DNA of 64,000 nt from NCBI RefSeq assembly GCF_022045235.1, contig NW_027266275.1:11408001-11472000 (forward strand). Direction: 5' to 3'. Both the position numbers and the translations under genes were made by a program. Below, in pieces: positions 16,840 to 60,164 of this stretch. The stretch is from Haliotis cracherodii (lineage: Eukaryota). The first letter of the stretch is position 1. Each line of letters starts with the position of its first letter. The notes under the pieces were generated by a model. The model saw only the letters and a list, made by a program, of their open reading frames with translations. It ran no database searches and was not told the DNA's origin.

Positions 16840-17790
16840 TATAACATGAGTCAGAGAGACATGGCCAACAAGAGGACGTTGCAACTATTCAATCAACAAT
16901 GTCAGCGTCGTGTGCGCGAGGCATCGGCGGGACACTTAAGACACCAGCCTGTTGTACCAAATTTCAACCAAAGATTGGTCCAACTGAGCTAGCGTTACCG
17001 GCTTGATCTGGTCCTCTCTGGTCTGGAGAAACATTCAGCCATGGCAGTACAATAAGGTTATTCTGCCTTAAATATTAAATTACAACACGTGCAACATGTT
17101 GGCGTTACGTCCCTGCATTTGCACAAAGGGTGAACCATGACCTTGAACGATGTCGTTCCGGTAGCGTACGCTGTTGAAATTGCCATTGACAATGATGTCT
17201 TCTCACGGGACTTGTGATGCCACCCCTTTCCATTACACTTCAACCCCAAACTGACGAAGTTGGGCGTTGTTAGCGCAGGTAAAAGGTTCTCCTATACCCA
17301 TTTAGAGCCTTGCACGACCACCAGATTTGTCCAGATGGGCCCTGGATTCATCTGTGAACAGTCCCAGTCTTGTCTTCTGAACCTCCGATGCTGGCTACAT
17401 CAAACTAGGTGACGACGGTGACGTGGAAGACAAAATAGGCATATCGGTGGACGTGTGGGCTCGATGTTTTGCTCCCTTATATGGCTGCGTGCGGTTTTGC
17501 CACTATCTGGTCTCAATCCAGGAATTGTCCGAGCTGTTAATGTGGTAGTTTTGTATCGTTTTCGTAGATGCACTAAGCGAATATGGTTGTCTTGTTGCCA
17601 TGACAACTCACGTGAACGACCGGTCTGTGGCAAGTCGTAAGTGTTGCCCCGCTGTAGATAACATCTCCAAAGAGATAATATTGTGTTTCGATGAAAATGA
17701 AAATGTTTGGCAACTTCGTTTTGCCTCATTCCTGTCTGCAGCATGCCCACGGCGCGTAGATGTTGATTTTCATGACATTGCATGAGCATT
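16840..17790 (-). mobile_element. Decayed Tc1/mariner transposase
   Basis: HTH region RAVGMLQTGMRQNEVAKHF..GRSR..QQDNHIR, then LFTDESR, VWGGI-like, DNAR.HTAR-like and WPCLS-like remnants with frameshifts. Confidence 0.85.
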
Positions 17791-18067
17791 ATTCAAAGCA
17801 AAAAGGTTTTCTATGAGCATCTGAGTAGTTATTGTGTGCTGTTCGCATTACACAAACTCATGCGGGAGTATCATGCTACCAACACGCCTTCTGTAATTTG
17901 AAAATAAATATTGATTCTTATGAAAAACGACTATGATATATCTCCCGTTGTACAAAACGAGGACACCCTTTCCTTATTCATAAGATATCTCTGCCAACAA
18001 CAGAGTCAGTTACTTTTCCGACTTTATCTTGAGCATGTGCTCATGAAACACTATCAAACAGTGATGA

Positions 18068-29156: not shown

Positions 29157-30805
29157 CTATGTAAGGATAAATGTCTTGATTTCCCTTTTACAAGTAACAA
29201 GAACTGAGTCATGTTTGTCAATGCAGAGACTCAATGGCTGGTTGATGCCATCCTTTGATGTGAGGACATCGCTGACATATTCCCCTGTCTCGCTTAGTTG
29301 TATCATCGTCTCGGCGTCGTTGTCTACAAACATGATATCTCCTTTTTTGGTGGTTGAGATACCAGCAGGAATACTGAGAGCTTTGGCTCCGGTAGGGGCG
29401 TATCTCCAAACAACATCCCCATCTGACGTCACACATGTCACAGACTTCTTCGCCCAGTCAGACACGAGAATGTTGCCCTTGTTGTTGACACACATATAGG
29501 CCGGGTAGGTAAACAGTGTCTCATTGTTGTGTGTAGTGACTGACCTAAGCACGTTTCCTGCCATGTCAAGGATATCAACACAGGCGCTACCACCTGCTGC
29601 CAGAGATGAAGGACTCAGAACAGCGAGACTGTAGTACATCGTGCGTGTTGTGATGGTTGCGAGCAGCACCAGGTCAGGGGTCACTTCTACTGTTACAATA
29701 TGGCGGGATGCAGGGACAACAACCATCACCTGCTTCTCCTTCAACTGCGTTACTCCCCATGGAGAGACATCCAGGGTGAGTCTACTTTGACATGCTTGAT
29801 TGTTTCTCGTGAAGAAAGATTTTACACACATGTTGGTGTAGTCTGTAACAACAATTGTCTGCATCCCATCTACATTAAGTTCTGTGATGCCAGGCATACT
29901 AGGTACCCCCTGGTCATCCTCTGGGGTCGCATCAAGTGTGTGGAACAACACAGGTGAACACTTCAGACGAGGTCCATCTCGATATCTGACGTCAATCTTC
30001 CCCAGCTGTAGGTCATCTAGGATGTGCTGGACGTTGTCAGTGTCAGGTGTAAACCTGATGTCATCTATTCTCCGTGTGTCTGCTGTGTCTGTGTCCCTGA
30101 CGTCCCCCAACTCTACAGCACCCGACTCCCAGGCCTGATATGCGTCATACAGGTCCATCTCACAGTCCGATACCAAGGCCTGGTCAATGAACTCACAATG
30201 TTGTCTGTACATCTGCATCTCAATCTCTTCAAGCTTTACATCAGCTTCGGTCTGAATGATGTGTCTTTCTGTTATTTCATCTAATTCATCTAACAGCTTC
30301 TGTTCCTTCTGTCTGATGTACTCTATGGCCTTATGAGTTATACGATTAACCTGCTCTTTTGCTGCCACTTTGTCGTCTTTAATTTTATTTATTTCGAATT
30401 TATGTCTCTCTATTCTATTGCTTTTGCCATGACATTTTGTCCGAAAGATGTCACTTCGCAAAGTTAACTCCGATTTCATTCTTGCCACTTGTGAATTGAT
30501 TGTGACGACATACTCACATTTCCTGTGGTAGACCACACAGCAGGACTGACACAGTGACTTGTTACAGTCTTTACAGATATATTTGACTTGCTCATCCTTG
30601 TGTTCTTGACACATGACCTTTCGTCTCTTCATCACCTTGATATCTCCAGACAGGTCACACAGTACGTGATCACGAGATGAGGGACAAGCACGATGCATCT
30701 TGACACACCTTTCACAGAGAGTAACTTCACAGTCTGGACACCAGGAGATCGCTGGAGTTGTCTCCCCTAGCTGGCCACATAATGTGCAACATTTAGCACC
30801 TGTGT
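29157..30805 (-). CDS. TRIM-NHL gene A1, coding exon 2 (B-box1, B-box2, coiled coil, six NHL blades; no filamin domain)
   Basis: Acceptor ttctttTACAG|AC fits phase 1. CTLC..WCPDC..LCERC..H and CQEH..CKDC..LCQSC..HRKC B-boxes, coiled coil, NHL repeats (YPAYMCVNNKGNILVSD), TAG at 29157. Confidence 0.92.
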
Positions 30806-31463
30806 CTGTAAAAGAAACAATTGGGCATAATTTCTACACATATATGAATGTAAATAGAAAAACCTTCATCTGGAATTCGATCTCACTTTCACAGAACTTA
30901 GAAGTACATCAACCATATAAAATGTGGTTGTACCTAGCGTGAGGGAACAAACGAGGCTTATCAGTGTTAGCCATTATTGGTAGTCCAATAGATATCGTTA
31001 CTTGGCGTGGGGACCCGTGAAGATCCAGGGTAGCATAATAGGTCCTAACCCAGGCTTGTCGTAAGAGGTGACTAAGGGGATCTGGTGGTCAGACTTGCTG
31101 ATTAGCTTGATGCATGTCATTGCATCCCAATTGCGTGGATTGATGCTCATGATATCACTCACTGGATTGTGTGGTACAGACTCGATTAATTACAGACCGT
31201 CGTCATACAGCTGGAATATTGCTGAGTGTGGCGTTAAACAGCAAAAACAAACCCCCAAATGGACGTGGGAAAACATGAAGACTTGCGTACGCAGTTAGTG
31301 ATGACAATACCAATAACATGTATCTAACATAGTAACTGTATTTTCATTCTTTAACAAATACATCCATATAACACATGTACACAAAAGCTAAAACAAGAAC
31401 GATGTTGTTGCATTGTGGAGTTCGCATCCTTAAAACTTATGTTAAATTGCGGGTGTGTCTAAC

Positions 31464-31645
31464 CTTCAAAAATATTTTCTGCTTGTGTGTCAATCAGCCC
31501 CTGTATAATGATGCTGGGTTTGACCTGCCCCTCCCGCTCCTCCCTGGCCTGCTGGGGTCGGGGACCTTGGTATCTTGTCGACAAAAGACACAGGGGATTG
31601 TCTTGGACCGAACAGCATGTGGTCTGGTTTGGATGTAAGCAGTGT
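31464..31645 (-). pseudogene. Decayed 3' half of an A3-type RING exon inside the A1 intron
   Basis: Reads YIQTRPHAVRSKTIPCVFCRQDTKVPDPSRP-(1-nt deletion)-EEREGQVKPSIIIQGLIDTQAENIFE, then G|GTTAGACACACCC, like the A3 donor G|GTAAGACACACCC. Confidence 0.85.
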
Positions 31646-31833
31646 ATGCCTTTGCATGTGTTTGTGTCGGGTGCCACCGGTGCGGCTCACCTTTTCGCGA
31701 ACACCTGGTATCATCACTATGTAATGGTAATTCATAAACTCATGCTCACGATATAGCCAGAATCGTACAATCGACTGTGTTTTCGGCAGAGATTCCTTAT
31801 GTATATGGAAAGGATTTTGTTGCTTGCATTTAC

Positions 31834-32131
31834 CTTCAGTAGAAGGTCGAGCTTGTGTGTCAATCAGCCCCTGTATAATGATGCTGGGTTTGATCTGCCC
31901 CGCCCACTCCTTCACTGGCCGGCTGGGATTGGGGGCCTTGGTATCTTGTCGACAGCAGGGACAGGGGATCGTCTTGGACTGTACAGCATCTGGTCTGATT
32001 TGGATGTATCCTGTGACACATTTCCTGCAGAATGTGTGATCACACCTCAGTGTACAGGGGTCTGTGTACAGCTCCTGGCAGATCACACAGTTGAGAAATT
32101 CCGTCACTTTCTCAGCTCGTGACGTCGCCAT
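31834..32131 (-). CDS. TRIM-NHL gene A1, coding exon 1 (C3HC4 RING); joins 29157-30805 to give 648 aa
   Basis: MATSRAEKVTEFLNCVICQELYTDPCTLRCDHTFCRKC...CPCCRQ. Acceptor ttttacag|ATG, donor GAAG|GTAAAT, 298 nt, phase 1. Confidence 0.9.
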
Positions 32132-33049
32132 CTGTAAAACAAAACATGACAATATGAGATCTGGCAGAATCACTTTTTACATTTTCAGGAGATCCTTTAG
32201 TTGCTCAGCTCGAAATATAACAATGACAATTAAAAGCTAATACGATTTTAGCATTTAACTCTCGATTTATTTGGAAACATTTATTTACAGATTAATATTG
32301 TACACCTAAAATAACAGTATAAAACTCCTGGAAGTATGGTGTGAGAGTTTCCAGTAGAAAACCATGAAGGGAGATACACTGTACACGTATGTACATAGCT
32401 GCTGCTGAAACATTAACATACTTGCACCGTGTGTTTAAAATTGATAACCAGTACCTATGCAAGATAGGTGTACACACAAAGTGTACCTAAATAGAGAAAT
32501 TGATAGCAGTGTATATTGTTGTAGAGACGGTAGAGACGGTGTTGCGCTGCTTATATCACATTCCAGCCATTATTCCAATTAGAGGAGGCGCCGAAATGGC
32601 CATCCAGGTAGTGTATGTGTGGACTACATTGTTTCAACAGAACGTCCAATTATTGTTAAAAGCTACATATTAAATCTTGCCAACACAGTCCAATGTCCCT
32701 GAGTAACAGACAATGCTCGCACTGTCACGATACAAGGGAGGTAACTGTGAAGGTTAGTGTCGGGGGCAAAGATACATGCTTTTATTGCGGCAATATTTCA
32801 TGAAGGACGAACAACTTCGTTCACCTGAAATAATAAACTAAAATGTGTTAGACAGCTGTAAAACTAACTCAAAACAGTAAGACAGTTAAACAGTAAGACA
32901 TAAAGTGTATGAACATACTTTGTGTCTCAGAATACGAAACAGAATCTCGCTCTACAAGTCCTTTTGTCGGTTTCTTTAAGTATAAAGGGTCATGAATGAG
33001 CTTGTTCACAAGACAAAATAAGTATTTAAAACACAAACCGTATACAAGT

Positions 33050-33320
33050 TGATACTGTATGTTGCTAGTTGACGAATTTAATAATCCTTTATCATGTGCA
33101 CTGTCAGCTTCAATTTATTTCCTTGAAGTCTTGAAATAACCAACTCCTGCAGAGATACACACCTGTGTCCACCTGCCGCTTTCGCATAACATACAAGGGA
33201 GGTAACTGCAAAACCTCGACTTGCGGTGATTGGTAAAGTATCAGTGCTGATGACCACGTAGGTCCTTGGATCGAATCAGGGCCGATTGCCATAGGCGGGT
33301 GCGATATCGACACATTGCAA
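33050..33320 (-). promoter_or_regulatory. Conserved upstream block, candidate promoter or non-coding exon 1 of the TRIM genes (homologs 39190-39470, 44810-45080, 51000-51280, 60560-60830)
   Basis: Every ATG is directly preceded by a splice acceptor, so a non-coding exon is expected upstream. This block (CTT(C/T)CG..ACAAGGGAGG(T/C)AACT) is conserved across A and B types. Confidence 0.45.
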
Positions 33321-34150
33321 TATTTAAGAAATAAACGACGAGTCGGTGTTGTTTGTCATACAATAAATACTGCAAGGAGAAAAAATAAACGAGGGATTAT
33401 GTCGTTTATTCCTGGTATATTCTCTCTGCATTGTTTCATGCTGTAGATTGTCACCAAATGACTTCTTTCACTTCAGGCCCAGGGCCCTTTGCATACATGT
33501 ATGTTTGTGTTAGAACGCTTTATAATCCTGTAGTGTGATTAGGGTTGAGGGACGAACACACATATTTATAGTAATTATGTTTGTCAACTGATTAGAATTG
33601 ATTAATAATTTTAATACGTTTAATCATGCTCCCTATTGCAAAAAACGTTGTGTGAAAGGACGTGTCTGGATATGTATTTCAACGGTGAAGTATAGGTTAA
33701 GTAATTTTCTTATTAAAACAGTTCACCACATTCACTATATCGGAAAGGAATAGTTAAAACACTGTTCGGTTTCTTCAGATTTACTGTCCATATTTCTATA
33801 TACATCTTGCATCTTATATTATTGGTAGTGGCGCTCGGTATGTTGTGTAAGCAGTTTTCAAATCACTGAAGCATAAACAAGGGCTGCACCTTGTACAGTT
33901 AACCTCCTGCATTCAATAATATATTCGGAGGTCTATATATTAATGTGTTTTCTTCCCAAGTTGTAGGTCATCTAGGATTTTACAGCGCTCTAATCCCTAT
34001 TGCAGTTATATCATGATGAGTCAGCTTGATGTGGAGTGTAAACACAAAGTGAAGCAGGTCTTAGACGTTTACCGTGGTGATGCCAAACAAAGTTAGATGA
34101 TCTGAGAGGTGAGGACTTCAACATGTCATTAGTCCATTCTGTTCTCCCTA

Positions 34151-34415
34151 GGGGGCACGGGTGGCCCAGTCGTCTAAGGCGCCGCGATTCGCTGTGCAGA
34201 GTTGCGTCCCTTGGGTACGCCAGAAACCTATGATTGTGGGTTCGAATCCCGGTTCGCTCCGATTATGTTTCTAGGTTTGTCAGTACCATACCCGTGCTCG
34301 TGGGTAAACGTCTGACACCTGCATCACTTGGGGCTTTCCTCCCACATTACGCTGACACGCCGTGATATAACTGGAATACTGTTAAAAGCGGCGTTAAACC
34401 CAACTCACTCACTCA
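34151..34415 (+). mobile_element. SINE family 2 copy (duplicated at 45919-46181; absent at the homologous site near 62310)
   Basis: 12-bp TSD ctgttctcccta. Confidence 0.88.
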
Positions 34416-35076
34416 CTGTTCTCCCTAAATTGTGAGATGAGATGAAATGGGGTTAAACGTCGCGTCCACGATCATTGCACTACATAGCGAAGTGCGTGCA
34501 CGTATGTGTGTGTGTGGGGCTGCTTGAATGTACTAGTCTGGACTAATGTCGATTTCATAGTGCTATCTCACTGAGGTACCATGCTGCATTCCACTCCAAC
34601 ACCCCACTCCAACACAGCCTATTGACTCCGAGCCAACTGTCATATCTTTAGCCCCTAAAAGTAGAGCGTCAGGCAGGGTAACATCAAGTACCATCTTTTC
34701 ACGTCTTTTGGCAGGACCCCGGACCTTCCGCTCTCTTAGCAGTCGCTCTACCACTAGACCACGGAGGCGGTTCTCCCTATTTGGCCTGAGCTACCTACTT
34801 GTATATGTCAGTAGAACAGTTCTCGTTTTGTATCCATCTGATGAAGTGGTAAATCGTTTTGGGGCAGATATCTTAGATTGGTATTCGTTTTATATTAACT
34901 GGATTACAGCAGAAGTCCAACACCGCCATTGTGGACACCTTCAACTGTGCCGTAAATACATGTGTCCTGTAGAACAAATTGACAAAACGTGTAGCCATCC
35001 TAACACAGCACTGCAACAGCAATTGATGTACACCAACTATCACATACAAGTGGTTAAGTGATTTCCATGATTCAGA

Positions 35077-35258
35077 GGGGCAGTAGGATAGCCTAGTGGT
35101 TAAACCGTTCTCTCGTCAGACCGAAGACCCGGGTTCGATTGCCGACATGGGTACAATGTGTGAAGCCAATTTCTGGTGTCCCCCGCCTTGATATTGCTGG
35201 AATATTGCTTAAAGCGGCGTAAACCATACTCACTCATTCACTGACTGACTCACTCACT
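35077..35258 (+). mobile_element. SINE family 1 copy (same insertion duplicated at 46862-47044 and 62937-63115)
   Basis: A/B boxes; TSD tccatgattc(a/t)ga present in all three units. Confidence 0.85.
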
Positions 35259-35836
35259 CCATGATTCTGATACCTGTACAAGTGGATCTGGTGTTGATTT
35301 CACAATCCCTATGCTTTCATCTGTCTACAAGAACATCTCTAAATATATATGAATCAAAACTGACAAACACAACAGCAAATTATTGATAGGAAATGTAAAC
35401 ATTTAATACTCATCATATATTTAATATATTATCTCAAATCTTACATGTAAACATGAGCTTCGCATGACAGAAATCCACTCACAGTAATGATTTCAGCTTC
35501 GAAAATGAATTGATAATTGCAAAATATTTTATTGTTACAAGTGATTTGGGCCTAATGCCCATGAGAGGCTGTTTCCTGGCTCGGAGAAGGGACGCAACTC
35601 TTCACAGCACACAGGAATGCCTCCTACCACTTGGTCACCCGTGTCTACTCTTATTCGTTTGCCGTTCAAGTTCCATATGGTGTCATGCAGGCCGCCCATA
35701 TGCAGCTGAGACATGACAATGTGCATCTTAATACATGTTGTCCTTCCCCGTCATCCCCTCCCTTTCATCCTTACACATCATCCCGAGATGTGAGAACTCA
35801 CTCCGACAAACCCCTTCATCGATATACATTCACATA

Positions 35837-37479
35837 CTATGTGAAAACAAATGTCTTGATTTCCCCTCCACCAGTTACAAGAACTGAGTCATGTTTGTCA
35901 ATGCACAGACTAATTGGCTGATTGATGCCATCCTGAGATGTGAGGACATCGCTGACATATTCCCCTGTCTCGGTTAGCTGTATAATAGTCACGGCGATCT
36001 TGTCTACAAACATGATATCTCCTGTGTTGGTTGTTAAGATACCAGTAGGCTTTCTGAGTGCTCTATCTCCGGTAGGGGCGTATCTCCACACGACATCCCC
36101 ATCTGAAGTCAAACATGTGACAGACTTCTTGCAGCAGTCAGACACGAGTATGTTGCCCTTGTTGTTGACACACATATAGGCGGGGTAGGCAAAGAGTGTC
36201 TCGTTGTTGTGTGTAGTGACTGACCTCAGCACTTGTCCTGTCATGTCCAGGATATCAAGACAGTCCCAAGTACCTGCTGCCAGAGATGAAGGACCCAGAA
36301 CAGCGAGACTGGCGTAGCCCTTGCTTGTTGTGATGGTTGAGTTCAGTACCAGGTCTTGGGACACCTCTACTGTTAGAATCTTTCGTGAGCCAGGGACAGC
36401 AACTATCACCTCTTTATCCGTCAACCGTGTTAGGCCAAATGGAGAGTCATCCAGGGGAAGTTTACTTTGAGATGGTTGATCGTTTCTGTTGTAGAAAGAT
36501 TTCACACACTTGTTGGTGTAGTCCGTAACAACAATTGTCTGTATGCCATCTACATAAAGTGCTGTGACACCAGGCATTCTAGGTATCCCTTCGTCATCCT
36601 CTGAGGTCGCATCAAGTGTGTGGAACAACACTGGTGAACACTTCAGTCCATCTCCATATGTGACGTCAATCTCCCCCAGCTGTAGGTCATCTAGGATGTG
36701 CTGGACGTTGTCAGTGTCAGGTGTAAACCTGATGTCATCTATTCTGTGTGTGTCTGCTGTGTCTGTGTCCCTGACGTCCCCCAACTCTACAGCACCCGAT
36801 TCCCAGGCCTGATACGCTTCATACAGGTCCATCTCACAGTCCGATACCAAGGCCTGGTCAATGAACTCACAATGTTGTCTGTACATCTGCATCTCAATCT
36901 CTTCAAGCTTTACATCAGCATGAGTCTGAATGACTTGTTTGTCTGTTATTTCATCCACTTCATCCAACAGCTTTTGTTCCTTCAGCCTGATGTGCTGTAT
37001 CATTTTATTGGCGTAAAGATGGATTTGTTCTTTAGTGGCCAATTTCTTTTCTTTTATTTGATCTAATCTCAACGTATGTCTCTCTATCCTTTTACCTTTG
37101 CCATGATATTTAGTCTGCAAGATATTTCTTTTCATAGTCAACTGTGACTTCATTCTTTCTACTTGTGAATTGATTGTGACGACAGAGTCACATTTCCTGT
37201 GGTAGACCACGCAGCATGACTGACACAGTGACTTGTTACAGTCTTTACAGATATATTTGACTTTCTTGTGCTTGTGCTCTTGACACATGATCTTGCGTCT
37301 CTGTTTAACCTTTACCTCCCCAGACAGGTCGCATAGTTCATGGTCACGAGATAAGGGACTAGCACGATGAATCTTGACACATCTTCCACAGAGGTTAACT
37401 TCACAGTCCGGACACCAGAAGGTCCCTGGAGTTGTCTCCCCTAGCTGCCCACATAACGTGCAGCACTTTGTAGTAGTGT
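35837..37479 (-). CDS. TRIM-NHL gene B1, coding exon 2 (B-box1/2, coiled coil, NHL propeller)
   Basis: Acceptor ttcattctCAG|AC; uninterrupted frame to TAG; paralog of A1 exon 2. Confidence 0.92.
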
Positions 37480-37619
37480 CTGAGAATGAAAATAACATCT
37501 TTTTGACAACGTGTCCATAAACCTATACATAAAAACAAATTGCACAATGACTTTTATATACAATTATATTTTTTAATGCATACATACATTTTCTGGCGCT
37601 AAACGTAACTCATTGATAA

Positions 37620-38000
37620 TATCTTTGTAAAATCTGGCGGTTAAACATTTCAGCAAGAGGTAGGCATGCCCATGGTACCAATTGTTTGCTCAGAAGTTGA
37701 TCAAGGTTACAACATTCAAGGCCTTAATAAAGCTTTCAAAAGGTGTTGAAAAAGATATGTGGAGGACATTTCCCAATTTGATTTGACTTATGTTGCCATG
37801 TTTTTTCATTTGAACAATTAACTTGCCTTTGCATGTGTTTGTGTCGGGTGCCACCGGTGCGGCTCACCTTTTCGCGAACACCTGGTATCATCACTATGTA
37901 ATGGTGATTCATAAACACATGCTGATGATATAGACGGAATCGTACAATCGACTCTGCTTTTGGCAGAGATTCCTAATGAATATGGAAAGGGTTTTGTCGC
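37620..38000 (+). mobile_element. PLE-like RT end and 3' UTR relic filling most of the B1 intron, antisense to the gene (also 49410-49800; shorter pieces 31648-31825 and 43407-43585)
   Basis: AQKL..QGYNIQGLNKAFKR translation plus the ctcaccttttcgcgaacacctggtatcatc motif. Confidence 0.7.
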
Positions 38001-38010
38001 TTGTATTTAC

Positions 38011-38308
38011 CTTCAGCAGAAGGTCCAGCTTGTGTGTCAATCAGCCCCTGTATAATGATGCTGGGTTTGATCTGCCCCGCCCACTCCTCCACTGGCCTGC
38101 TAGGGTCGGGGACCTTGGTATCTTGTCGACAGCAGGGACAGGGGATCGTCTTGGACTGTACAGCATCTGGTCTCGTTTGGATGTATCCTGTGACACATTT
38201 CCTGCAGAATGTGTGATCACACCTCAGTGTACAAGGGTCTTTGTACAGTTCCTGGCAGATCACACAGGTGAGGAATTCCATCACTTTTTCAGCCCGCGAC
38301 GTCGCCAT
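38011..38308 (-). CDS. TRIM-NHL gene B1, coding exon 1 (RING); joins 35837-37479 to give 646 aa
   Basis: Same 298-nt RING exon, cag|ATG start, GAAG|GTAAAT donor. Confidence 0.9.
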
Positions 38309-41300
38309 CTGTAAAACAGGACATGATAGTATGAGATCACTGTCACAATCAAGATCACTCTTCAGGACATCTTTCAGTTAGATGAATAAGTGATACTTTG
38401 TTTCTTATTTAATTTTTAAATTTAAGCATGTGAAAGAAAGTTTTTAACGTTATTTCGCATTTAACTGATGATTATATTGGGACATTTTTACTTAATGATT
38501 GATATGTTGTACTTAAAATACATTTAGAAACTACTGAATGCTGTGAGAATTTTCAAAATCATACCTTGAAGAAAAATAACTGCAGGTGAAGCATATATCT
38601 TACATACTGGCACTGTTGATTTAAAATTGATTACCAATTACGTGTGCAACATGAACACAAAGGTAAGGGTACACAAAACAGAGAATTGACATAGGGAATA
38701 TCACTGTAGTTATCACAGTAGAGGGCACTTGACATGGTCAGGCTGGGAGTGTATGTAAAGACTTATGTAGGTTTGGCAGTGTCGGCATTGCTTCAAATTA
38801 TTTCTAACAGCTATATTTTAAAACATACCCACATCGTCCTGTATGAGGGACTATTGATCCATCTCTATGTGCCTGGTTTATATACACGCCCCCTCAATGT
38901 CACAGTACAAGGAAGGAAATTGTGTAGGTCAGTGTGTCGGGGTCAAAGTTTAATGTTTTTTTATTTTTTTCAGTATTCATATCGACGAAGGACTTGGTTT
39001 ACCTGAATTGATACACACAGACTTTTGTAACTAACGTATAACAGCAGAAGTAAGATAAATGTAAGATACAAGGCGTTTCAGGATACGAAACGCGATCTTT
39101 CTCTACAAGTCATACTTTCAGTTTCTCTGACATTAGTTTTAAGTTCCCTGACTGTGTGTGTTCACAACACAAACTCAATATTTACGAAATACAAACCGTA
39201 TACAAGTTGATTGTGTCTGATGCTAGTAGATGAATAGATACTTCTTCATCATATGGATCCTGTTGGCTTTGCTTAGAATCCCGGAAACCTTGAAATAACA
39301 CCTCCCGTCGAGGTAGGCAGTTGTGTCTATCTGACTCTTCCGTATGACGTACAAGGGAGGCAACTACGAAACCTCGACAAGTGGTGACTGGGCAGAGCTG
39401 ACGACAACGTAGTTTCCCGGATCCAATCTAGTATGACGGACATAGCCAGGCGAGATGTCCACACACCTCAAGGTACATACTTATTGTACTTATTATATAT
39501 AGTGTAGTTGTAAAGTCCTATCGTGTCAAAAACATTTGTTTTAGCACAAGGACACGTGCCGATGTTTTGTCCTATCTTTAAGTATAGAAAGCAAAGTGAC
39601 TTGTTGGTGAGTGAGCGTTTTGGCCACATGAAGAGCAAATTATCAAAGACAGTTTCCCCATGTTTCCACACCGGCTTCATCCAACGTTTTCATTAAAAGA
39701 TAATACTATCTAGGATATTTACTATCATCAATACACAAAAGCTTAAATCAATGTTCAACACATTTAAAATGATAATCTACATACAGTTGTCTTCTACTAC
39801 ATTTTGCTAAAATAGCACTTCTAGAAACATATTTACTTACCCCCAACACATATTTACAGAGATTAGCACAAAACGATTCTAATACTTGGTATTGCTGAAA
39901 ACACCACACCTCTACCCCATACAATATAATAGGCTATATTTTAGTGTCAAGCAGTTCAAATAAAATAGTTACAGGCATCAGTGGGAATTTATATCATAAC
40001 ATTGATATGAAACAAAGCTGATAATCAATGTGTCTATGCACTTTGACCAGGACAATCGATTATAATGCAGAACACCTGTGTAATTGCTGTAAGTACATGT
40101 CACTGTTTTTGGAACGTCACTCATAAACCATTTTTATAATGCCTTAGTGTATCCTCAGGTCTGAATACGATTACTTCTGTTTTATGCAAATTAACCTGTA
40201 GTCCCAATTTTTCACAAAAGCTGTCAGGAACGTTAACTTTTTTTGGTAGCCCCAAAACACTATCATCAATCAAGCATAAATAAAGTACAATCGAGCATGC
40301 TCCTTCCGACAAGATTTCGGGATGTGACACTTGAAAAGTTGTTTGATCACGGTTACAACATTCAAGTCTTCAGTAAAGCTTTCAAAACGTTATATGGTAG
40401 ATATTTGGATAACATCAGCATCAGTAACAAGAAATCAACGTTATCAATATCCACTGCCATGGGGCACATGTTTGTTCATGTAGAAGTGAATATAAACTAA
40501 AAAAAAAGAGTCCTATAAAGCCTTAAGAAGAGTTTTGCACGTGCACTAGGGTCACTTTATGAAAAAATAATTAAACGTGAAATTAATACATACAAAATAA
40601 TTTAAAGCACAAATTCTCGAACAAAATCTAAAAACATGTAGCAAGGGAAGTAACTCTGGCAAAATATCATTTACGGGACCACTTTTTTTGACAAGTATCT
40701 ATCACATAAGTATGGAAACTTTCACTCGTGTAACTTAAGGAGTTTCTGGGAAAACCCATTTCCCGCAGTTTGCACTAGATTGAAAAGCATGGAGCAAGGG
40801 CTTTAACTTCCATTATGCGAACTCATTAAAGATCAGTGCGTAAAATGTTATTTCTCTAACTTAAATCGATTAAGAGAGAATTTGTCCCCTTTGTGAAGCG
40901 GACGGAAGGACGGAAATACGATGGAACGGACGGAAGGACGCACGAACTCCGTTTCCTTATCCCCGTCTTACTTAGTGGCGGGGGATAAAAATAATGTTCG
41001 ATGCAATGCCCTATTTAGATTTCTACCAGTTCCCGCGTTTTTCAGTTGAAACATTTGACATTTGCTCGTGCTTGTGACGGCTGCCACCGATGGGGCACGA
41101 TACGCTTATCTGTTCGCGAGCAATTGGTATCATCCCAATAGTAACGGTGATTCATGGAAGCATACTCATAATATAGTCGGAATCGTACACTATTAATCGA
41201 CTCTACTTTTGACAGAGATTTCTTATGAATGTGGAAAGGGTTTTGTCACATTTTATCTTTAGACATAAGAATGTGCATCCTTTTACAATGAACTATTATT

Positions 41301-41386: not shown

Positions 41387-43029
41387 CTATGTAAGGATAA
41401 ATGTTTTGATTTCCCTTCCACAAGTAACAAGAACTGAGTCATGTTTGTTAATGCAGAGACTCAATGGCTGGCTGATGCCATCCTGTGATGTGATAACATC
41501 GCTGACATATTCCCCTGTCTCGCTTAGTAGTATAATAGCCTCGGTCAGCTGGTCTATAAGCATGATATCTCCAGTGTTGGTTGTAAAGATACCAGAAGGT
41601 TGATGGTGTGCCCTATCTCCGGTAGACGGGTATCTCCACACGGCTTTCCCCTCTGACGTAAAACATGTCACAGACTTCTTCTTCCAATCAGACACGAGTA
41701 TGTTGCCCTTGGTGTTAACACTCATGTAGGACGGGAAGGCAAACAGTGTCTCCTTGTTGTGTGTAGTGACTGACCTCAGCACGTGTCCCGCCATGTCCAT
41801 GATATCAACACATGTTATACTACCTGCTGCCAGGGATGTAGGACTCAGAACAGAGAGACTGGAGTACTTCTTTCTTGTTGTTATTGTCGAGAGCAGCACC
41901 AGGTCAGGGGTCACTTCTACTGTTACAATCTGACTGGAGCCAGGGACAGCAACCATCACCTGGTTCTCCTTCAACTGTGTTACACCACGTGGAGAGTTAT
42001 CCAGGGGAAGTCTACTTTGACATGCTTGATTGTTTCTCGTGAAGAAAGATTTCACACATTTGTTGGTGTTGTCTGTAACAACAATTGTCTGCATCCCATC
42101 TACATTAAGTTCTGTGACGCCAGTGATAAAAGGTATCTCCTCGTCATTCAATGAGGTCGCATCAAGTGTGTGGAACAACACTGGTGAACACTTCAGGCCA
42201 TTTCCATATGTGACGTCAATCTCCCCAAGCTGTAGGTCATCTAGGATGTGCTGGACGTTGTCAATGTCAGGTGTAAACCTGATTTCATCTATTCTCCGTG
42301 TGTCTGCTGTGTTTGTGTCCCTGACATCCCCCAACTCTACAGCTCCCGACTCCCAGGCCTGATACGCGTCATACAGGTCCATCTCACAGTCCGATACCAA
42401 GGCCTGGTCAATGAACTGACAATGTTGTCTGTACATCTGCATCTCAATCTCGTCAAGCTTTACATCAGCATGAGTCTGAATGATGTGTTTTTCTGTTATT
42501 TCATCTAATTCATCTAACAGCTTCTTTTCCTTCTGTCGGATGTACTCTATGGCCTTATGAGCTATCAGATTAACCTGCTCTTTTACTGCAACTTTGTCGT
42601 CTTTCATGTTATCTATTTTGAATTGATGTCTCTCTATTCTATTTCGTTTGCCATGACATTTTGTCCGTAAGATGTCACTTCGCAATGCTAACTCTGATTT
42701 CATTCTTGCCACTTGTGAATTGATTGTGACGATAGACTCACATTTCCTGTGGTAGACCACACAGCAGGACTGACACAGTGACTTGTTGCAGTCTTTACAG
42801 AGATATTTGACATGCTCATCCTTGTAATCTTGACACATGACCTTTCGTCTCTTCATCACCTTGATATCTCCAGACAGGTCACACAGTTCGTGGTCACGAG
42901 ATGAGGGACTAACCCGATGCATTTTGACACACCTTTCACAGAGAGTAACTTCACAGTCTGAACACCAGGAGATCGCTGGAGTTGTCTCCCCTAGCTGTCC
43001 ACATAATGTGCAACATTTAGCACCTGTGT
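41387..43029 (-). CDS. TRIM-NHL gene A2, coding exon 2
   Basis: Acceptor TACAG|AC; intact frame; B-box2 reads CQDY instead of CQEH. Confidence 0.91.
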
Positions 43030-43222
43030 CTGTAAAAGAAACAATTGGGCATAATTTGTACAAATATATGAATGTAAATACAAACACCATCATTGCATGT
43101 TATTCGTACATGATACTACATACAATCTGGAATTCGAACACAAAAGCTAAAACAAGTACGATGTTGTTGCATTGTGGAGTTCGCATCCTTAAAACTTCTA
43201 TTAAATTGCGTGTGTGTCTAAC

Positions 43223-43404
43223 CTTCAAAAATATTTTCTGCTTCTGTGTCAATCAGCCCCTGTATAATGATGCTGGGTTTGACCTGCCCCTCCCGCTCCT
43301 CCCTGGCCTGCTGGGGTCGGGGACCTTGGTATCTTGTCGACAAAAGACACAGGGGATTGTCTTGGACCGAACAGCATGTGGTCTGGTTTGGATGTAAGCA
43401 GTGT
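43223..43404 (-). pseudogene. Decayed 3' half of an A3-type RING exon inside the A2 intron
   Basis: Near-identical to the 31464-31645 relic. Confidence 0.85.
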
Positions 43405-43592
43405 ATGCCTTTGCATGTGTTTGTGTCGGGTGCCACCGGTGCGGCTCACCTTTTCGCGAACACCTGATATCATCACTATGTAATGGTAATTCATAAACTC
43501 ATGCTCATGATATAGGCAGAATCGTACAATCGACTGTGTTTTCGGCAGAGATTCCTTATGTATATTGGAAGGATTTTGTTGCTTGCATTTAC

Positions 43593-43890
43593 CTTCAGCA
43601 GAAGGTCCAGCTTGTGTGTCAATCAGCCCCTGTATAATGATGCTGGGTTTGATCTGCCCTGCCCACTCCTCCACTGGCCGGCTGTGATGGGGGGCCTTGG
43701 TATCTTGTCGACAGCAGGGACAGGGGATCCTCTTGGACTGTACAGCATATGGTCTGATTTGGATGTATCCTGTGACACATTTCCTGCAGAATGTGTGATC
43801 ACACCTCAGTGTACAGGGGTCTGTGTACAGCTCCTGGCAGATCACACAGGTGAGAAATTCCGTCACTTTCTCAGCTCGTGACGTCGCCAT
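43593..43890 (-). CDS. TRIM-NHL gene A2, coding exon 1 (RING); joins 41387-43029 to give 646 aa
   Basis: 298-nt RING exon with the same splice sites as A1. Confidence 0.9.
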
Positions 43891-46800
43891 CTGTAAAACA
43901 AAACATGACAATATGAGATCTGGCTGAATCACTTTTTACATTTTCAGGAGATCCTTTAGTTGCTCAGCTCGAAATATAACAATGACAATTAAAAGCTAAT
44001 ACGATTTTAGCATTTAACTCTCGATTTATTTGGAAACATTTATTTACAGATTAATATTGTACACCTAAAATAACAGTATAAAACTACTAGAAGTATGGTG
44101 TGAGAGTTTCCAGTAGAAAACCATGAAGGGAGATACACTGTACACGTATGTACATAGCTGCTGCTGAAACATTAACATACTTGCACTGTGTGTTTAAAAC
44201 TGATAACCAGTACCTATGCAAGATAGGTGTACACACAAAGTGTACCTAAATAGATAAATTGATAGCAGTGTATATTGTTGTAGAGACGGTAGAGACGGTG
44301 TTGCGCTGCTTATATCACATTCCAGCCATTATTTCAATTAGAGGAGGCGCCGAAATGGCCATCCAGGTAGTGTATGTATGGACTACATTGTTTCAACAGA
44401 ATGTCCAATTATTGTTAAAAGCTACATATTAAATCTTGCCAACACAGTCAAATGTCCCTGAGTAACAGACAATGCTCGCACTGTCACGATACAAGGGAGG
44501 TAACTGTGAAGATCAGTGTCGGGGGCAAAGATACATGCTTTTATTGCGGCAATATTTCATGAAGGACGAACAACTTCGTTCGCCTGAAATAATAAACTAA
44601 AATGTGTTAGACAGCTGTAAAACTAACTCAAAACAGTAAGACAGTTAAACAGTAAGACATAAAGTGTATGAACATACTTTGTGTCTCAGAATACGAAACA
44701 GAATCTCGCTCTACAAGTCCTTTTGTCGGTTTCTTTAAGTATAAAGGGTCATGAATGAGCTTGTTCACAAGACAAAATAAGTATTTAAGACACAAACCGT
44801 ATACAAGTTGATACTGTATGTTGCTGGTTGACGAATTTAATAATCCTTTATCATGTGCACTGTCAGCTTCAATTTATTTCCTTGAAGTCTTGAAATAACC
44901 AACTCCTGCAGAGATACACACCTGTGTCTACCTGCCGCTTCCGCGTAACATACAAGGGAGGTAACTGCAAAACCTCGACTTGCGGTGATTGGTAAAGTAT
45001 CAGTGCTGATGACCACGTAGGTCCTTGGATCGAATCAGGGCCGATTGCCATAGGCGGGAGCGATATCGACACATTGCAATATTTAAGAAATAAACGACGA
45101 GTCGGTGTTGTTTGTCATACAATAAACACTGCAAGGAGAAAAAATAAACGAGGGATTATGTCGTTTATTCCTGGTTTATTCTCTCTGCATTGTTTCATGC
45201 TGGAGATTGTCACCAAATGACTTCTTTCACTTCAGACCCAGGGCCCTTTGCATACATGTATGTTTGTGTTAGAACGCTTTATAATCCTGTAGTGTGATTA
45301 GGGTTGAGGGACGGACACACATATTTATAGTAATTATGTTTGTCAACTGATTAGAATTGATTAATAATTAATAAAAAAGTACGTTTATTCATGCTCCCTA
45401 CTGCAAAAACGTTGTGTGAAAGGACGTGTCTGGATATGTATTTCAACGGTGAAGTACAGGTTAAGTAATTTTCTTATTAAAACAGTTCACCACATTCACT
45501 ATATCGGAAAGGAATAGTTAAAACACTGTTCGGTTTCTTCAGATTTACTGTCCATATTTCTATATACATCTTGCATCTTATATTATTGGTAGTGGCGCTC
45601 GGTATGTTGTGTAAGCAGTTTTCAAATCACTGAAGCATAAACAAGGGCTGACCCTTGTACAGTAAACATCCTGCATTCAATAATATAATCAGATGTCTAT
45701 ATATTAATGTGTTTTCTTCCCAAGTTGTAGGTCATCTAGGATTTTACAGCGCTCTAATCCCTATTGCAGTTATATCATGATGAGTCAGCTTGACGTGGAT
45801 TGTAAACACAAAGTGAAGCAGGTCTTAGACGTTTACCGTGGTGCTGCCAAACAAATTAAGTTAGATGATCTGAGGGGTGAGGACTTCAACATATTATTAG
45901 TCCATTCTGTTCTCCCTAGGGGGCACGGGTGGCCCAGTCGTCTAAGGCGCCGCGATTCGCTGTGCAGAGTTGCGTCCCATGGGCACGCCAGAAACCTATG
46001 ATTGTGGGTTCGAATCCCGGTTCGCCCCGATTATGTTTCTAGGTTTGTCAGTACCATATCCGTGCTCGTGGGTAAACGTCTTAGACCTGCATCACTTCGG
46101 GCTTTCCTCCCACATTAAGCTGACACGCCGTGATATAACTGGAATACTGTTAAAAGCGGCGTTAAACCCAACTCACTCACTGTGCTTCCTAAATGGTGAG
46201 ATGAGATGAAATGGGGTTAAACGTCGCGTCCAAGATCATTGCACTACATAGCGAAGTGCGTGCACGTATGTATGTGTGTGGCTGCTTGAATGTACTAGTC
46301 TGGACTAATGCCGATTTCATAGTGCTATCTCACTGAGGTGCCATGCTGCATTTAACATGAACGCCTCACTCCAACACAGCCTATTGACTCCGAGCCAACT
46401 GTCATATTTTTAGCCCCTACAAGTAGAGCGCCAGGCAGGGTAACATCAAGTACCATCTTTTCACGTCCTTTGGTATGACTCGGTTGGGGATCAAACCCCG
46501 GACCTTCCGCTCTCTTAGCAGTCGCTCTACCCCTAAACCACGGAGGCGGTTCTCCCTATTTGACCTCAGCTACCTACTTGTGTATGCCTGTAGAACAGGC
46601 CTCGTTTTGTATCCATCTGTTGAAGTGGTAAATCGGTTTGGGGCAGATATCGTAGACTAGTATTCGTTTCCTATTAACTGGATTACAGCAGAAGTCCAAC
46701 ACCGCCGTTGTGGACACCTTCGACTGTGCCGTAAATACATGTATCCTGTATCGCGGGAACAAATTGACAAAACGTGTAGCCATCCTAACACAGCACTGCA

Positions 46801-47614
46801 ACAACAATGGATGTACACCAACTATCACATACAAGTGGTTAAGTGATTTCCATGATTCAGAGGGGCGGTCGGGTAGCCTAGTGGTTAAAGCGTTCTCTCG
46901 TCACGCCGCAGGCCCGGGTTCGATTGCCGACATGGGTACGATGTGTGAAGCCAATTTCTGGTGTCCCCCGCCTTGATATTGCTGGAATATTTCTATTTAA
47001 AAGCGGCGTAAAACCAGACTCACTCATTCATTCACTCACTCACTCCATGATTCAGATACATGTAAAGTGGATTTCGTCTACATTTGACAATCCATATGCT
47101 ATTATCTGTCTACAAGAACGTCTCTAAATATATATGAATCAAAACGAAAAAACACAACAGCAAATTATTGATAGGAAATGTAAACATTTAATTTTCCTCA
47201 TATATTTAATATATTATCTCAACTCTTACATGTAAACATGACCTTCGAATAACAGAAACCCTCCCACAGTAATGATTTAAGCTTCGAAAATGAATTGATA
47301 ATTGCAAAACATTAGTGATTAGGGCCTTATGCCCATGGGAAACTGTTTCCTGGCTCGGAGAAGGGACGCAACTCTTCACAGCAAACAGTAATGCTTCCTA
47401 CCATTTGGTCGATCACTCGTGTCTACTCTTATTCGTATGTCGTTCAAGTTCCATATGGTTTCACGCAGGCCGCCCATATGTAGCTGAGACATAACAATGT
47501 GCATCTTGATACATGTTGTTCTCCCCCGTCATCCCCTCGCTTTCATCCTTACACATCATCCCGAGATGAGAGAACTCAATCCGACAAAGCCCTTCATCGA
47601 TATACATTCACATA

Positions 47615-49257
47615 CTATGTGAAGACAAATGTCTTGATTTCCCCTCCACCAGTTACAAGAACAGAGTCATGTTTGTCAATGCACAGACTAATTGGCTGAT
47701 TGATGCCATCCTGAGATGTGAGGACATCGCTGACATATTCCCCTGTCTCGGTTAGCTGTATAATAGTCACGGCGATCTTGTCTACAAACATGATATCTCC
47801 TGTGTTGGTTGTTAAGATACCAGTAGGCTTACGGAGAGCCTTATCTCCGGTAGGGGCGTATCTCCACACAACATCCCCATCTGACGTCAAACATGTGACA
47901 GACTTCTTGCAGCAGTCAGACACGAGTATGTTGCCCTTGTTGTTAACACACATATAGGCGGGGTAGGCAAACAGTGTCTCGTTGTTGTGTGTAGCGACTG
48001 ACCTCAGCACTTGTCCTGTCATGTCCAGGATATCAAGACAGTCCCAAGTACCTGCTGCCAGAGATGAAGGACCCAGAACAGCGAGACTGGCGTAGCCCTT
48101 GCTTGTTGTGATGGTTGAGTTCAGTACAAGGTCCGGGAACACCTCTACTGTTAGAATCTTCTGTGAGCCAGGGACAGCAACTATCACCTCTTTCTCTGTC
48201 AACCGTGTTAGGCCAAATGGAGAGTCATCCAGGGGAAGTCTACTTTGACATGGTTGATCGTTTCTGTTGTAGAAAGATTTCACACACTTGTTGGTGTAGT
48301 CTGTAACAACAATTGTCTGTATGCCATCTACATAAAGTGCTGTGACACCAGGCATTCTAGGTATCCCTTCGTCATCCTCTGAGGTCGCATCAAGTGTGTG
48401 GGACAACACTGGTGAACACTTCAGTCCATCTCCATATGTGACGTCAATCTCCCCCAGCTGTAGGTCATCTAGGATGTGCTGGACGTTGTCAGTGTCAGGT
48501 GTGAACCTGATGTCATCTATTCTCCGTGTGTCTGCTGTGTCTGTGTCCCTGACATCCCCCAACTCTACAGCTCCCGACTCCCAGGCCTGATACGCTTCAT
48601 ACAGGTCCATCTCACAGTCCGATACCAAGGCCTGGTCAATGAATTCACAATGTTGTCTGTACATCTGCATCTCAATCTCTTCAAGCTTTACATCAGCATG
48701 AGTCTGAATGACTTGTTTGTCTGTTATTTCATCCACTTCATCCAACAGCTTTTGTTCCTTCAGCCTGATGTGCTGTATCATTTTATTGGCGTAAAGATGG
48801 ATTTGTTCTTTAGTGGCCAATTTATTGTCTTTTATTTGATCTAATTTCAACGTATGTCTCTCTGTCCTTTTACCTTTGCCATGATATTTAGTCTGCAAGA
48901 TATTTCTTTTCAGAGTCAACTCTGACTTCATGTTTTCTACTTGTGAATTGATTGTGACGACAGAGTCACATTTCCTGTGGTAGACCACGCAGCATGACTG
49001 ACACAGTGACTTGTTACAGTCTTTACAGATATATTTGACTTTCTTTTGCTTGTGCTCTTGACACATGATCTTGCGTCTCTGCTTAACCTTTACCTCCCCA
49101 GACAGGTCGCATAGTTCATGGTCACGAGATAAGGGACTAGCACGATGAATCTTGACACATCTTCCACAGAGGTTAACTTCACAGTCCGGACACCAGAAGG
49201 TCCCTGGAGTTGTCTCCCCTAGCTGCCCACATAACGTGCAGCACCTGGTAGTAATGT
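47615..49257 (-). CDS. TRIM-NHL gene B2, coding exon 2
   Basis: Acceptor ttgttctCAG|AC; intact frame; nearly identical to B1. Confidence 0.92.
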
Positions 49258-49809
49258 CTGAGAACAAAAATGAAAATGAATGGAAATATTTTTGACAACG
49301 TGTACATACATAAACCTATACATAAAATAACATATTGCACAATGACTTGTATATATAATTATATTTTTAAATGCACACATACATTTTCTGGCGCTGAACG
49401 TAACTCATTGATAATATCTTTGTAAAATTTGGCGGTAAGACATTTCAGCAAGAGGTACGCATGCCCATGGTACCAATTGTTTGCTCAGAAGTTGTTTGAT
49501 CAAGGTTACGACATTCAAGGCCTCAATAAAGCTTTCAAATAGTGTTGCAGTAGATATGTGGAGGACATTTCCCAATTTGATTTGACTTATGTTGCCATGT
49601 TTTATCATTTGAACAATTAACTTGCCTTTGCATGTGTTTGTGTCGGGTGCCACCGGTGCGGCTCACCTTTTCGCGAACACCTGGTATCATCACAATGTAA
49701 TGGTGATTCATAAACACACGCTGGTGATATAGTCGGAATCGTACAATCGACTCTGTTTTTGGCAGAGATTCCTTATGAATATGGAAAGGGTTTTGTCGCT
49801 TGAATTTAC

Positions 49810-50107
49810 CTTCAGTAGAAGGTCCAGCTTGTGTGTCAATCAGCCCCTGTATAATGATGCTGGGTTTGATCTGCCCCGCCCACTCCTCCACTGGTCGGCT
49901 GGGGTGGGGGACCTTGGTATCTTGTCGACAGCAGGGACAGGGGATCGTCTTGGACTGTACAGCATCTGGTCTCGTTTGGATGTATCCTGTGACACATTTC
50001 CTGCAGAATGTGTGATCACACCTCAGTGTACAGGGGTCTGTGTATAGTTCCTGGCAGATCACACAGGTGAGGAATTCCATCACTTTTTCAGCCCGCGACG
50101 TCGCCAT
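49810..50107 (-). CDS. TRIM-NHL gene B2, coding exon 1 (RING); joins 47615-49257 to give 646 aa
   Basis: 298-nt RING exon, cag|ATG, GAAG|GTAAAT. Confidence 0.9.
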
Positions 50108-57683: not shown

Positions 57684-59332
57684 CTATATAAGAATAAATG
57701 TTTTGATTTCCCTTCCACAAGTAACAAGAACTGAGTCATATTTGTTAATGCAGAGACTCAATGGCTGGCTCATGCCATCCTGTGATGTGATGACATCGCT
57801 GACATATTCCCCTGTCTCGCTTAGTTGTATAATAGCCTCGGCCAGCTGGTCTATAAACATGACATCTCCAGTGTTGGTTGTAAAGATACCAGAAGGCTGA
57901 TGGAGTGCCATATCTCCCGTGGGGGCGTATCTCCACACGACGTCCCCATCTGACGTCAAACATGTCACAGACTTCTTCTTCCAATCAGACACGAGTATGT
58001 TGCCCTTGGTGTTAACACTCATGTAGGACGGTAAGGTAAACAGTGTCTCCTTGTTGTGTGTAGTGACTGACCTCAGCACGTGTCCCCCCATGTCCAGGAT
58101 ATCAACACCGCCCCAACCACCTGCTGCTAGAGAAGAAGGACTCAGAACAGCGAGACTGTAGTACCCCTTGCTTGTTGTGATGGTTGAGAGCAGCACCAGG
58201 TCAGGGGTCACTTCTACTGTTACAATATGACGGGATGCGGGGACAGCAACCATCACCTGCTTCTCCTTCAACTGTGTAACACCCCATGGAGAGTCATCCA
58301 GGGTGAGTCTACTTTGACATGATCGATTGTTTCTCGTGAAGAAAGATTTCACACACGTGTTGGTGTAGTCTGTAACAACAATTGTCTGCATCCCATCTAC
58401 ATTAAGTTCTCTGACGCCAGGCATACCAGGTATCCCCTCGTCATCCTCTGAGGTCGCATCAAGTGTATGGAACAACACTGGTGAACACTTCAGACCAGGT
58501 CCATCTCCATATCTCAGGTCAATCTTCCCCAGCTGTAGGTCATCTAGGATGTGCTGGACGTTGTCAGTGTCAGGTGTAAACCTGATGTCATCTATTCTGT
58601 GTGTGTCTGCTGTGTCTGTGTCCCTGACATCCCCCAACTCTACAGCCCCCGACTCCCAGGCCTGATACGCGTCATACAGGTCCATCTCACAGTCCGATAT
58701 CAAGACCTGGTCAATGAACTCACAATGTTGTTTGTACATCTGCATCTCAATCTCGTCAAGCTTTACATCAGCATGAGTCTGAATGATATGTTTTTCTGTT
58801 ATTTCATTTAATTCATCTAACAACTTATTTTCCTTCTGTCGGATGTACTCTATGGCCTTATTGGCTATAAGATTAACCTGCTCTCTTACTGCCACTTTGT
58901 CGTCTTTAATTTTATCTATTTTGAATTGATGTCTCTCTATTCTATTGCCTTTGCTGTCACATTTTGTCCGTAAGATGTCACATCGCAAAGCTAATTCCGA
59001 TTTCATTCTTGCCACTTGTGAATTGATTGTGACGACAGACTCACATTTCCTGTGGTAGACCACACAGCAGGACTGACACAGTGTCATGTTGCAGTCTTTA
59101 CAGAGATATTTGACTTGCTCATCCTTGTGTTCTTGACACATGACCTTTCGTCTCTTCATCACCTTGATATCTCCAGACAGGTCACACGGTACGTGGTCAC
59201 GAGATGAGGGACTAGCACGATGCATCTTGACACACCTTTCACAGAGAGTAACTTCACAGTCTGGACACCAGGAGATCGCTGGAGTTGTCTCCCCTAGCTG
59301 GTCACATAATGTGCAACATTTAGCACCTGTGT
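57684..59332 (-). CDS. TRIM-NHL gene A3, coding exon 2
   Basis: Acceptor ttccttcaCAG|AC; intact frame to TAG. Confidence 0.92.
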
Positions 59333-59866
59333 CTGTGAAGGAAAAATCTATTGTACACTTATTTCAATGTAAATACAAACATCTTCCATTGCACCTTAAA
59401 ACGTACATGACACCACATATAATCAGGCCCGATCTGTAATTCGAACTCACTATCATGGGAGTTGGGTGATACAACAATAGCAGGGAATTGTACGAGTTGG
59501 CTAATGTACCCCAACATGCATGACGTACAGAGCGCAGACGTACGTCATTCATATGAACTGATATGTATTGGTTGGCTGTACTTGGCCTGGGGAACAAACG
59601 AAGCCTATGAGTGGTAGCCATCGTTGTAGAAGGTAGTCCAATAGACATCGATACTTGGCGTGGGAATAAATTGAGCCTTGTGTAGTAAGTAGTGAGTACG
59701 ACAATGACACGCTTTATGACATACATCTAAAATAGTAACTGTAATTTCATTCGCCAACAAATACATCCATATAACATATGTACACAGAAGCTTAGACACA
59801 TACGTTGTGGTGGCACTATGAAGTTCCTATCCTTAAAACTGCTCTGAGGTTGTGGGTGTGTCTTAC

Positions 59867-60164
59867 CTTCAGTAGTAGCTCCAGCTTGTGTGTCAATCAG
59901 CCCCTGTATAATGATGCTGGGCTTGATCTGCCCTGCCCACTCCTCCACAGGCCGGCTGGGGTGGGGAACCCTGGTATATTGTCGACAGAAGGCACAGGGG
60001 ATCGTCTTGGACTGTACAGCATCTGGTCTGGTTTGGATGTATTCAGTGACACATTTCCTGCAAAATGTGTGATCACACCTCAGTGTACAAGGGTCTGTGT
60101 ACAGTTCCTGGCAGATCACACAGGTGAGGAATTCCATCACTGTCTCGGCCTGTGACGTCGCCAT
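59867..60164 (-). CDS. TRIM-NHL gene A3, coding exon 1 (RING, CAFCRQ variant); joins 57684-59332 to give 648 aa
   Basis: 298-nt exon, cag|ATG, donor GAAG|GTAAGA. Confidence 0.9.

Follow-up and report, generated by a model that had tools for sequence, protein, structure and literature searches.

TRIM-NHL proteins, such as TRIM2, TRIM3, TRIM32, TRIM71, wech and lin-41, contain a RING domain, two B-boxes and NHL repeats, and the abalone proteins described here have the same composition. The available text of PMC9334734 gives a count of 22 TRIM genes for Aplysia. Recombination and exon shuffling have been reported for the ftr and btr TRIM expansions of fish (available text of PMC3137616), and a few RING residues can turn TRIM ligase activity on or off (available text of PMC11992055). 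When repair synthesis copies past the end of homology, termination occurs with base addition or microhomology, as the accessible part of a 2016 study describes (PMC5104497). A search of the literature outside subscription papers returned no paper on this abalone TRIM family or locus.

The window is the whole stretch of 64,000 nucleotides of Haliotis cracherodii DNA that was analysed (G000:C12:11408001-11472000), and positions without a contig prefix refer to it. From 29 kb onward it carries TRIM genes on the minus strand, each with a first coding exon for the RING domain and a second coding exon for two B-boxes and NHL repeats. Followed along its transcription, the array in the window and a further 98 kb of the contig runs G, F, E, D, B4, C, A4, a truncated B3, A3, B2, A2, B1 and A1, and more TRIM copies lie on the contig at 10.9-11.2, 12.2-12.5 and 13.4-13.5 Mb. 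B3 is a 5'-truncated remnant retaining only the last 795 nt of exon 2 (window 63730-64000 plus G000:C12:11472001-11472523), about 470 nt downstream of the A4 stop codon. B4 (G000:C12:11499251-11500880) has stops in the exon-2 frame that gives the family N-terminal sequence and is probably a pseudogene. A tandem duplication of 8.3 kb (31379-39630 and 43138-51442) is 94% identical overall, with an uneven distribution of 98% around the A1 and A2 RING exons and 90% in the second exons. Elsewhere in the window, a minus-strand exon at 5281-5652 encodes the N-terminal coiled coil of cGMP-dependent protein kinase (PF16808, 36.8 bits, cut-off 35), and a minus-strand helix-turn-helix fragment at 17400-17792 (HTH_28, E 7e-4, below cut-off) is probably a relic of what we take to be a Tc1/mariner transposase.

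The best protein match of the A1 product is a 100% identical H. cracherodii entry, 'tripartite motif-containing protein 3-like'. Profile searches of A1 detect a C3HC4 RING (PF00097, 32.7 bits, cut-off 21; PF13445, 36.5, cut-off 25.2), a B-box (PF00643, 27.8, cut-off 24.1), a first B-box slightly below its cut-off (PF22586, 26.5, cut-off 27) and, over the whole exon-2 product, NHL repeats (PF01436, 33.3, cut-off 20), and a coiled coil is assumed from its position behind the B-boxes. By this composition A1 is a TRIM-NHL protein, with a predicted function as a ubiquitin ligase. The best 120 of 159 protein matches to the family are all from Haliotis, suggesting that these genes are a lineage-specific expansion. 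Two H. rufescens members, P0029 (PF17039/PF00852) and P0117 (PF00076), have extra annotated N-terminal domains, either true fusions or gene-model errors.

The original prediction described a CPCC RING exon in A1 followed by about 185 nt of B intron, a relic reading CVFCRQ and an A3-like intron. All of these elements are present, and the layout recurs in A2 (Table 1) and in a third, previously unmentioned gene outside the window, A4 (G000:C12:11475277-11476063).

Table 1. Features of the A1 junction and related genes (window positions; a slash marks the exon-intron boundary)
Feature	Position	Strand	Remarks
A1 RING exon (first coding), 298 nt, ATG 32131	31834..32131	-	phase-1 donor G/GTAAAT, CPCCRQ; used by RefSeq model XP_071106916.1
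B-type intron start, 187 nt; a dispersed repeat in truncated form	31647..31833	-	92-93% identical to B1, B2 and B4 intron starts
Two extra bases, TA, at the non-homologous junction	31645..31646	-	possibly templated
Relic 3' half of RING exon (= exon nt 117-298)	31464..31644	-	1-nt deletion, CVFCRQ; donor G/GTTAGA
Remainder of A-type intron	30806..31463	-	first 200 nt about 78% identical to A3 intron; unrelated dispersed repeat at 31047-31251
A1 exon 2, coding for two B-boxes, a linker and NHL repeats	29157..30805	-	A-type; D-like converted blades towards the 3' end
A/C-type upstream flank of A1	32132..33890	-	acceptor-like TTTTACAG directly before ATG
A2, layout as in A1	43223..43890	-	RING exon 43890-43593, B intron piece 43592-43406, relic 43403-43223
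A2 second coding exon	41387..43029	-	A-type
B1 RING exon and intron start	37824..38308	-	donor-lineage sequence
B2 RING exon and intron start	49623..50107	-	donor-lineage sequence
A3, A-type gene without insertion	57684..60164	-	CAFC, donor G/GTAAGA; represents the earlier layout

The relic ends in G/GTTAGACACACCC, and its 1-nt deletion, between 31544 and 31543, is common to all three relics; A3 reads CAFCRQ in its RING and has the donor G/GTAAGACACACCC. A 28-mer across the junction has exactly three matches in the genome, which are identical and lie in A1, A2 and A4, and its reversed control has none. Among 30 loci examined, a second RING half-exon is found only in these three genes. An assembly artefact is ruled out by the three copies being about 4% different around an identical junction. 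At the junction, B sequence ending in AAAGGCA is followed by TA and then by exon nt 117, and the extra TA may have been templated from TACACTG, which recurs at exon nt 77-83. Further into the A1 intron, the dispersed repeat at 31047-31251 shows very high contig depth in four RNA runs from other organisms; it is absent from A2, where about 510 nt is deleted.

Beyond the relic the sequence is that of an A gene. The relic donor and the 200 nt behind it align with the A3 intron (43 differences in 199 aligned nt in A1; blastn 75%, E 9e-34) and with no B intron, indicating that the relic sits in an A-type context. The relic body has 12 mismatches to E, 14 to D and 19 to A3; its grouping with A3 is rejected (p-AU 0.011), and it groups weakly with E (86/75). 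The expectation that the relic groups with A3 is thus borne out by the donor and intron and not by the exon body. A1 and A4 differ at 7 of 183 positions in the relic, 8 of 200 in the next stretch of intron and 16 of 426 upstream, so the relic is changing as fast as the sequence around it. Between A3 and the relic-side intron there are 43-45 differences in 199 positions (22%), compared with 6-9% between the insert and B, indicating that A3 split off before the event; the same divergence rejects A3 as a revertant that lost the insert. Upstream of the RING exon, long blocks of the A1 flank are 73-83% identical to A3 and 80% identical to gene C, and identity to B is 68-70% over the main block of about 570-610 nt and 66-79% in shorter patches.

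In a tree with 10 genome-wide copies of the repeat, the intron pieces of A1, A2 and A4 and those of B1, B2 and B4 form one clade (99/98), and a 9-nt deletion is common to both sets. This clade and this deletion reject independent insertions of the repeat into A and B. The insert differs from B at 11-17 positions in 174-188 nt (6-9%). Since B retains a longer repeat and the A copies stop at the junction, the direction of transfer is from B to A. The A genes form a clade in the exon-2 tree (100/100), and grouping of A1, A2 and A4 with A3 is rejected for nt 117-277 of the RING exon (p-AU 0.003). In agreement with these results, the proposal of a single B-to-A transfer before the duplications stands, and the RING exons do not fall with A3 in this segment.

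The B signal inside the exon is thin. Eight sites in nt 117-298 separate B from the relics, and the B state is present at seven of them in A1 and A2 and at five in A4. A1, A2 and A4 have five fixed differences from B, four at nt 12-29 and one at nt 135, and sites 120 and 122 are also non-B in A4; in the A1 exon, nt 1-29 are not B-like and nt 120-298 are mostly B-like. A Fisher test on B-like sites was set aside because the 5' sites had been chosen by outcome. The RING trees comprise 23-26 rows, including 11 of the 20 far loci among L009-L030, and three of the four bootstraps had not settled. Grouping of A1, A2 and A4 with B is rejected for nt 1-135 (p-AU 0.013) and is not rejected for the RING core (0.30), nt 117-277 (0.37) or nt 1-277 (0.17); this monophyly is not recovered in the trees of the RING core or nt 117-277, in which F and the far copy L009 fall in the same group. 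Grouping with A3 is rejected for nt 1-135, the RING core and nt 117-277 (p-AU 0.003-0.006) and is not rejected for nt 1-277 (0.125). The rejection of B at nt 1-135 together with the B-like sites downstream suggests that the left junction is inside the exon, from nt 30 to about nt 119; there is no informative site between these bounds. The relic starts at nt 117, and a B tract beginning at this same point is compatible with the data.

Compared with the earlier state inferred from the relic, the RING differs only at codons 41, 58 and 59 (A41G, A58P and F59C), and neither the zinc ligands nor the Arg that follows the last Cys has changed. This Arg is present in both the CPCC and CAFC variants and presumably corresponds to the linchpin residue discussed in the available text of PMC11992055. 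The predicted net change in the protein is about three RING residues and the linker tail, and the residue effects described in PMC11992055 make a functional effect of such changes possible. CPCC is also found in C, F, G, L009 and L022, and sister genes differ in their CxxC type; with both variants spread across the family, the use of CPCC and CAFC as B and A markers is rejected. The last CxxC could be read by pattern in 81 of 126 proteins, mostly 90% cluster representatives whose subfamily make-up differs by species. Among these, CAFC accounts for 41 of the 57 proteins from H. cracherodii and H. rufescens and for 2 of the 24 from H. rubra and H. asinina, 19 of which have CPxC, so CAFC is unlikely to be just the original type.

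RING amino-acid identity averages 92% among 18 H. cracherodii paralogues, and that of the coiled coil, B-box and propeller 54-67%. Divergence of the RING exon at four-fold sites is 6.5-22% between six subfamilies, measured over about 27-31 RING sites for each pair; it is below that of the propeller in 15 of 15 pairs and below that of the B-box and coiled coil in 14 of 15. This low silent-site divergence suggests repeated conversion of the RING exon. Throughout the TRIM arrays (window 29157-64000 and L009-L040), paralogues resemble each other much more closely in the RING exon than elsewhere in the gene, silent sites included. Windows in nt 1201-1500 of A1 exon 2 are 93-96% identical to D and 77-87% identical to the other A genes, and one A4 propeller window is 93% identical to B1. 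The A1 blades at 29157-29605 (exon-2 nt 1201-1650) share 91-96% identity with gene D, which lies about 76 kb away, and are less similar to other A genes. The A1 and A4 propellers are thus mosaics, with conversion tracts in the substrate-binding part.

These observations bear on the view, put forward in the original prediction, that a whole B RING exon replaced the A exon, changing the catalytic module while the A propeller was kept. The 3' half of the exon, the donor and the intron start are indeed B-like, and as nt 30-116 have no site separating A1, A2 and A4 from B, the RING codons could all be B-derived. Against this, the 5' end of the exon is not B, the relic is only half an exon, the RINGs are very alike across the family and keep their zinc ligands and the Arg behind the last Cys, and the propellers are mosaic, so that this view can hardly hold. 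A broader proposal is that the array keeps two functionally different RING alleles, CPCC and CAFC, which would be dealt among variable substrate-binding bodies by frequent conversion, that most paralogues in H. cracherodii and H. rufescens have come to carry CAFC, and that the locus is the dated scar of one exchange, possibly rescuing a decaying gene. This proposal is doubtful.

The net layout in A1, A2 and A4 can be read as nt 1-116 of the A exon, B-like nt 117-298 together with 187 nt of the B intron, the bases TA, nt 117-298 of the former A exon and finally the A intron. About 370 bp have thus been inserted at exon nt 116/117; one junction of the insert is homologous, and the other is non-homologous and has two added bases. 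The shared insertion probably resulted from B-templated break repair in an A gene followed by end-joining. The ancestral A gene would have been broken within its RING exon, and a neighbouring B gene would have served as the repair template, with synthesis running on beyond the homologous stretch; the copied tract would then have been end-joined to the other broken end, leaving the old half-exon behind. As the new B-derived donor would restore a whole in-frame exon, the old half-exon would become intronic and decay, and later tandem duplication would give the three copies. The layout is observed directly, and from it we infer the break, the invasion and their single-step order.

The same layout could be reached in two steps from an A-B-A array, if an unequal crossover in the RING exon made a gene with an A flank and a B body, and a non-homologous deletion from B intron position +187 into the RING exon of the next A gene then joined it to the body of that gene. 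B genes are located directly upstream of A genes in the array, and non-homologous deletions do occur here, with B3 having lost its 5' half and A2 part of its intron. In addition, the near part of the A1 flank resembles C (80%) more than A3 (73%), and the relic body is closer to E and D than to A3. However, two events are needed, the intermediate is absent from the 12 local RING exons examined, and A-type sequence makes up the far flank, the relic-side intron and exon 2 alike. This route is therefore regarded as unlikely. It is less likely still that the RING exon of the A gene had already been damaged, with a frameshift and a weak GTTAGA donor, and that the B copy revived a dying gene. The relics share six private changes in the last 21 exon nt together with the donor change, in a stretch where eight working A, B and D exons barely differ, and the insert gained only 1-3 changes on the same stem. 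Yet the six private changes of the relics in nt 117-277 are within the range of 0-10 seen in 23 comparison exons, and exon 2 is open in A1, A2 and A4, which argues against a long dead phase.

A1 is predicted to splice from 31834 to 30805, giving a TRIM protein of 648 aa, and the RefSeq models of A1, A2 and A4, themselves predictions, use the new donor and join STE or SAE to DTGAK. A CT..AC joint at 30805-31834 is present in three of four RNA runs of other organisms, in 1, 3 and 1 contigs, and is missing from X16. Because these runs were aligned at 85% and the joint may stem from any A or B paralogue, it supports the intron rather than a specific paralogue. Productive use of the relic donor is rejected, since it is in phase 2 (A1 and A2) or phase 0 (A4) relative to a phase-1 acceptor and lies downstream of a stop at codon 214 or 152. 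There is no pyrimidine-rich acceptor directly before the relic, and no relic-donor joint is found among the 15 of 50 joints listed for the RNA runs of other organisms. A strong-looking cryptic donor, AAG/GTGAGC, is present in the repeat at 31691 (also at 43450, 37868 and 49667), 143 nt past the true donor; it is in phase 0 in A1, A2 and B, and in phase 1 with an open frame in A4 owing to a 14-nt deletion. Read-through into the intron at 31490-32131 and 43249-43890 gives a RING-only open frame of 213 aa in A1 and A2; this frame is 151 aa in A4 and 190 aa in B2 and is probably due to chance.

In P0003 of H. rufescens, a B-type tail (ARPSTE) is joined to an A-type exon 2, the latter 90% identical to A4, and P0007 matches A3. 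P0003 groups with A2 instead of A4 in the B-box/coiled-coil tree. The combination of tail and exon 2 in P0003 suggests that the event likely predates the split of H. cracherodii and H. rufescens, a dating that rests on protein sequence.

The repeat at the start of the B intron has 5853 first-look candidates genome-wide, and its end beside the B donor is fairly constant. In longer copies there is a decayed open frame with similarity to the B introns as well; in the longer copy L077 this frame is 173 aa long and matches the B introns by tblastn. The repeat is read as the antisense 3' end of a decayed retroelement, possibly a Penelope-like element (PLE). Its open frames have no match in Pfam or PDB, and no full-length element is found among 37 copies with 1.5-kb flanks. 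The Atlas similarity of the repeat frame to clusters with PF26215 in 18-54% of their members is 0.88, below 0.9, and serves only as a lead. Rfam detects no ribozyme in 24000-64000, the only hit being a chance mir-297 match on an AT repeat. A motif in the repeat looks like the C-terminus of a PLE reverse transcriptase (RT). This reading fits the Naiad elements of molluscs, which the available text of PMC8557442 describes as having a C-terminal RT and no hammerhead. The label 'PLE relic' given earlier to the repeat is therefore best kept as a plausible lead.

The locus provides a clean natural example of what would be paralogue-templated repair ending in end-joining and rebuilding a working exon, and shows a RING exon that is homogenised while the B-box, coiled coil and propeller diverge and recombine. 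The process is a known one, with no new mechanism and no new domain combination, and its weight would rise should the two RING variants, CPCC and CAFC, prove unlike in activity or in their use of E2 enzymes. As for exon shuffling, the 5' exon end is not B-like and the RING differs at about three codons, which is not the move of a whole exon with a different module. The fish ftr and btr proteins have RBCC-B30.2 architecture, with a true domain replacement in the cyclophilin case (available text of PMC3137616), whereas the abalone proteins have an NHL C-terminus and half of the RING was replaced by a near-identical half. A close likeness is to the system in the accessible part of PMC5104497, in which, likewise, the single homologous junction cannot be positioned precisely, copying continues beyond the homology and extra bases stand at the second junction. 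That system relies on reporters in mouse ES cells, where the donor is a sister chromatid and the tracts are kilobases long, whereas the abalone locus would represent a germ-line event between mollusc paralogues, with a tract of about 370 bp that was fixed and later duplicated.
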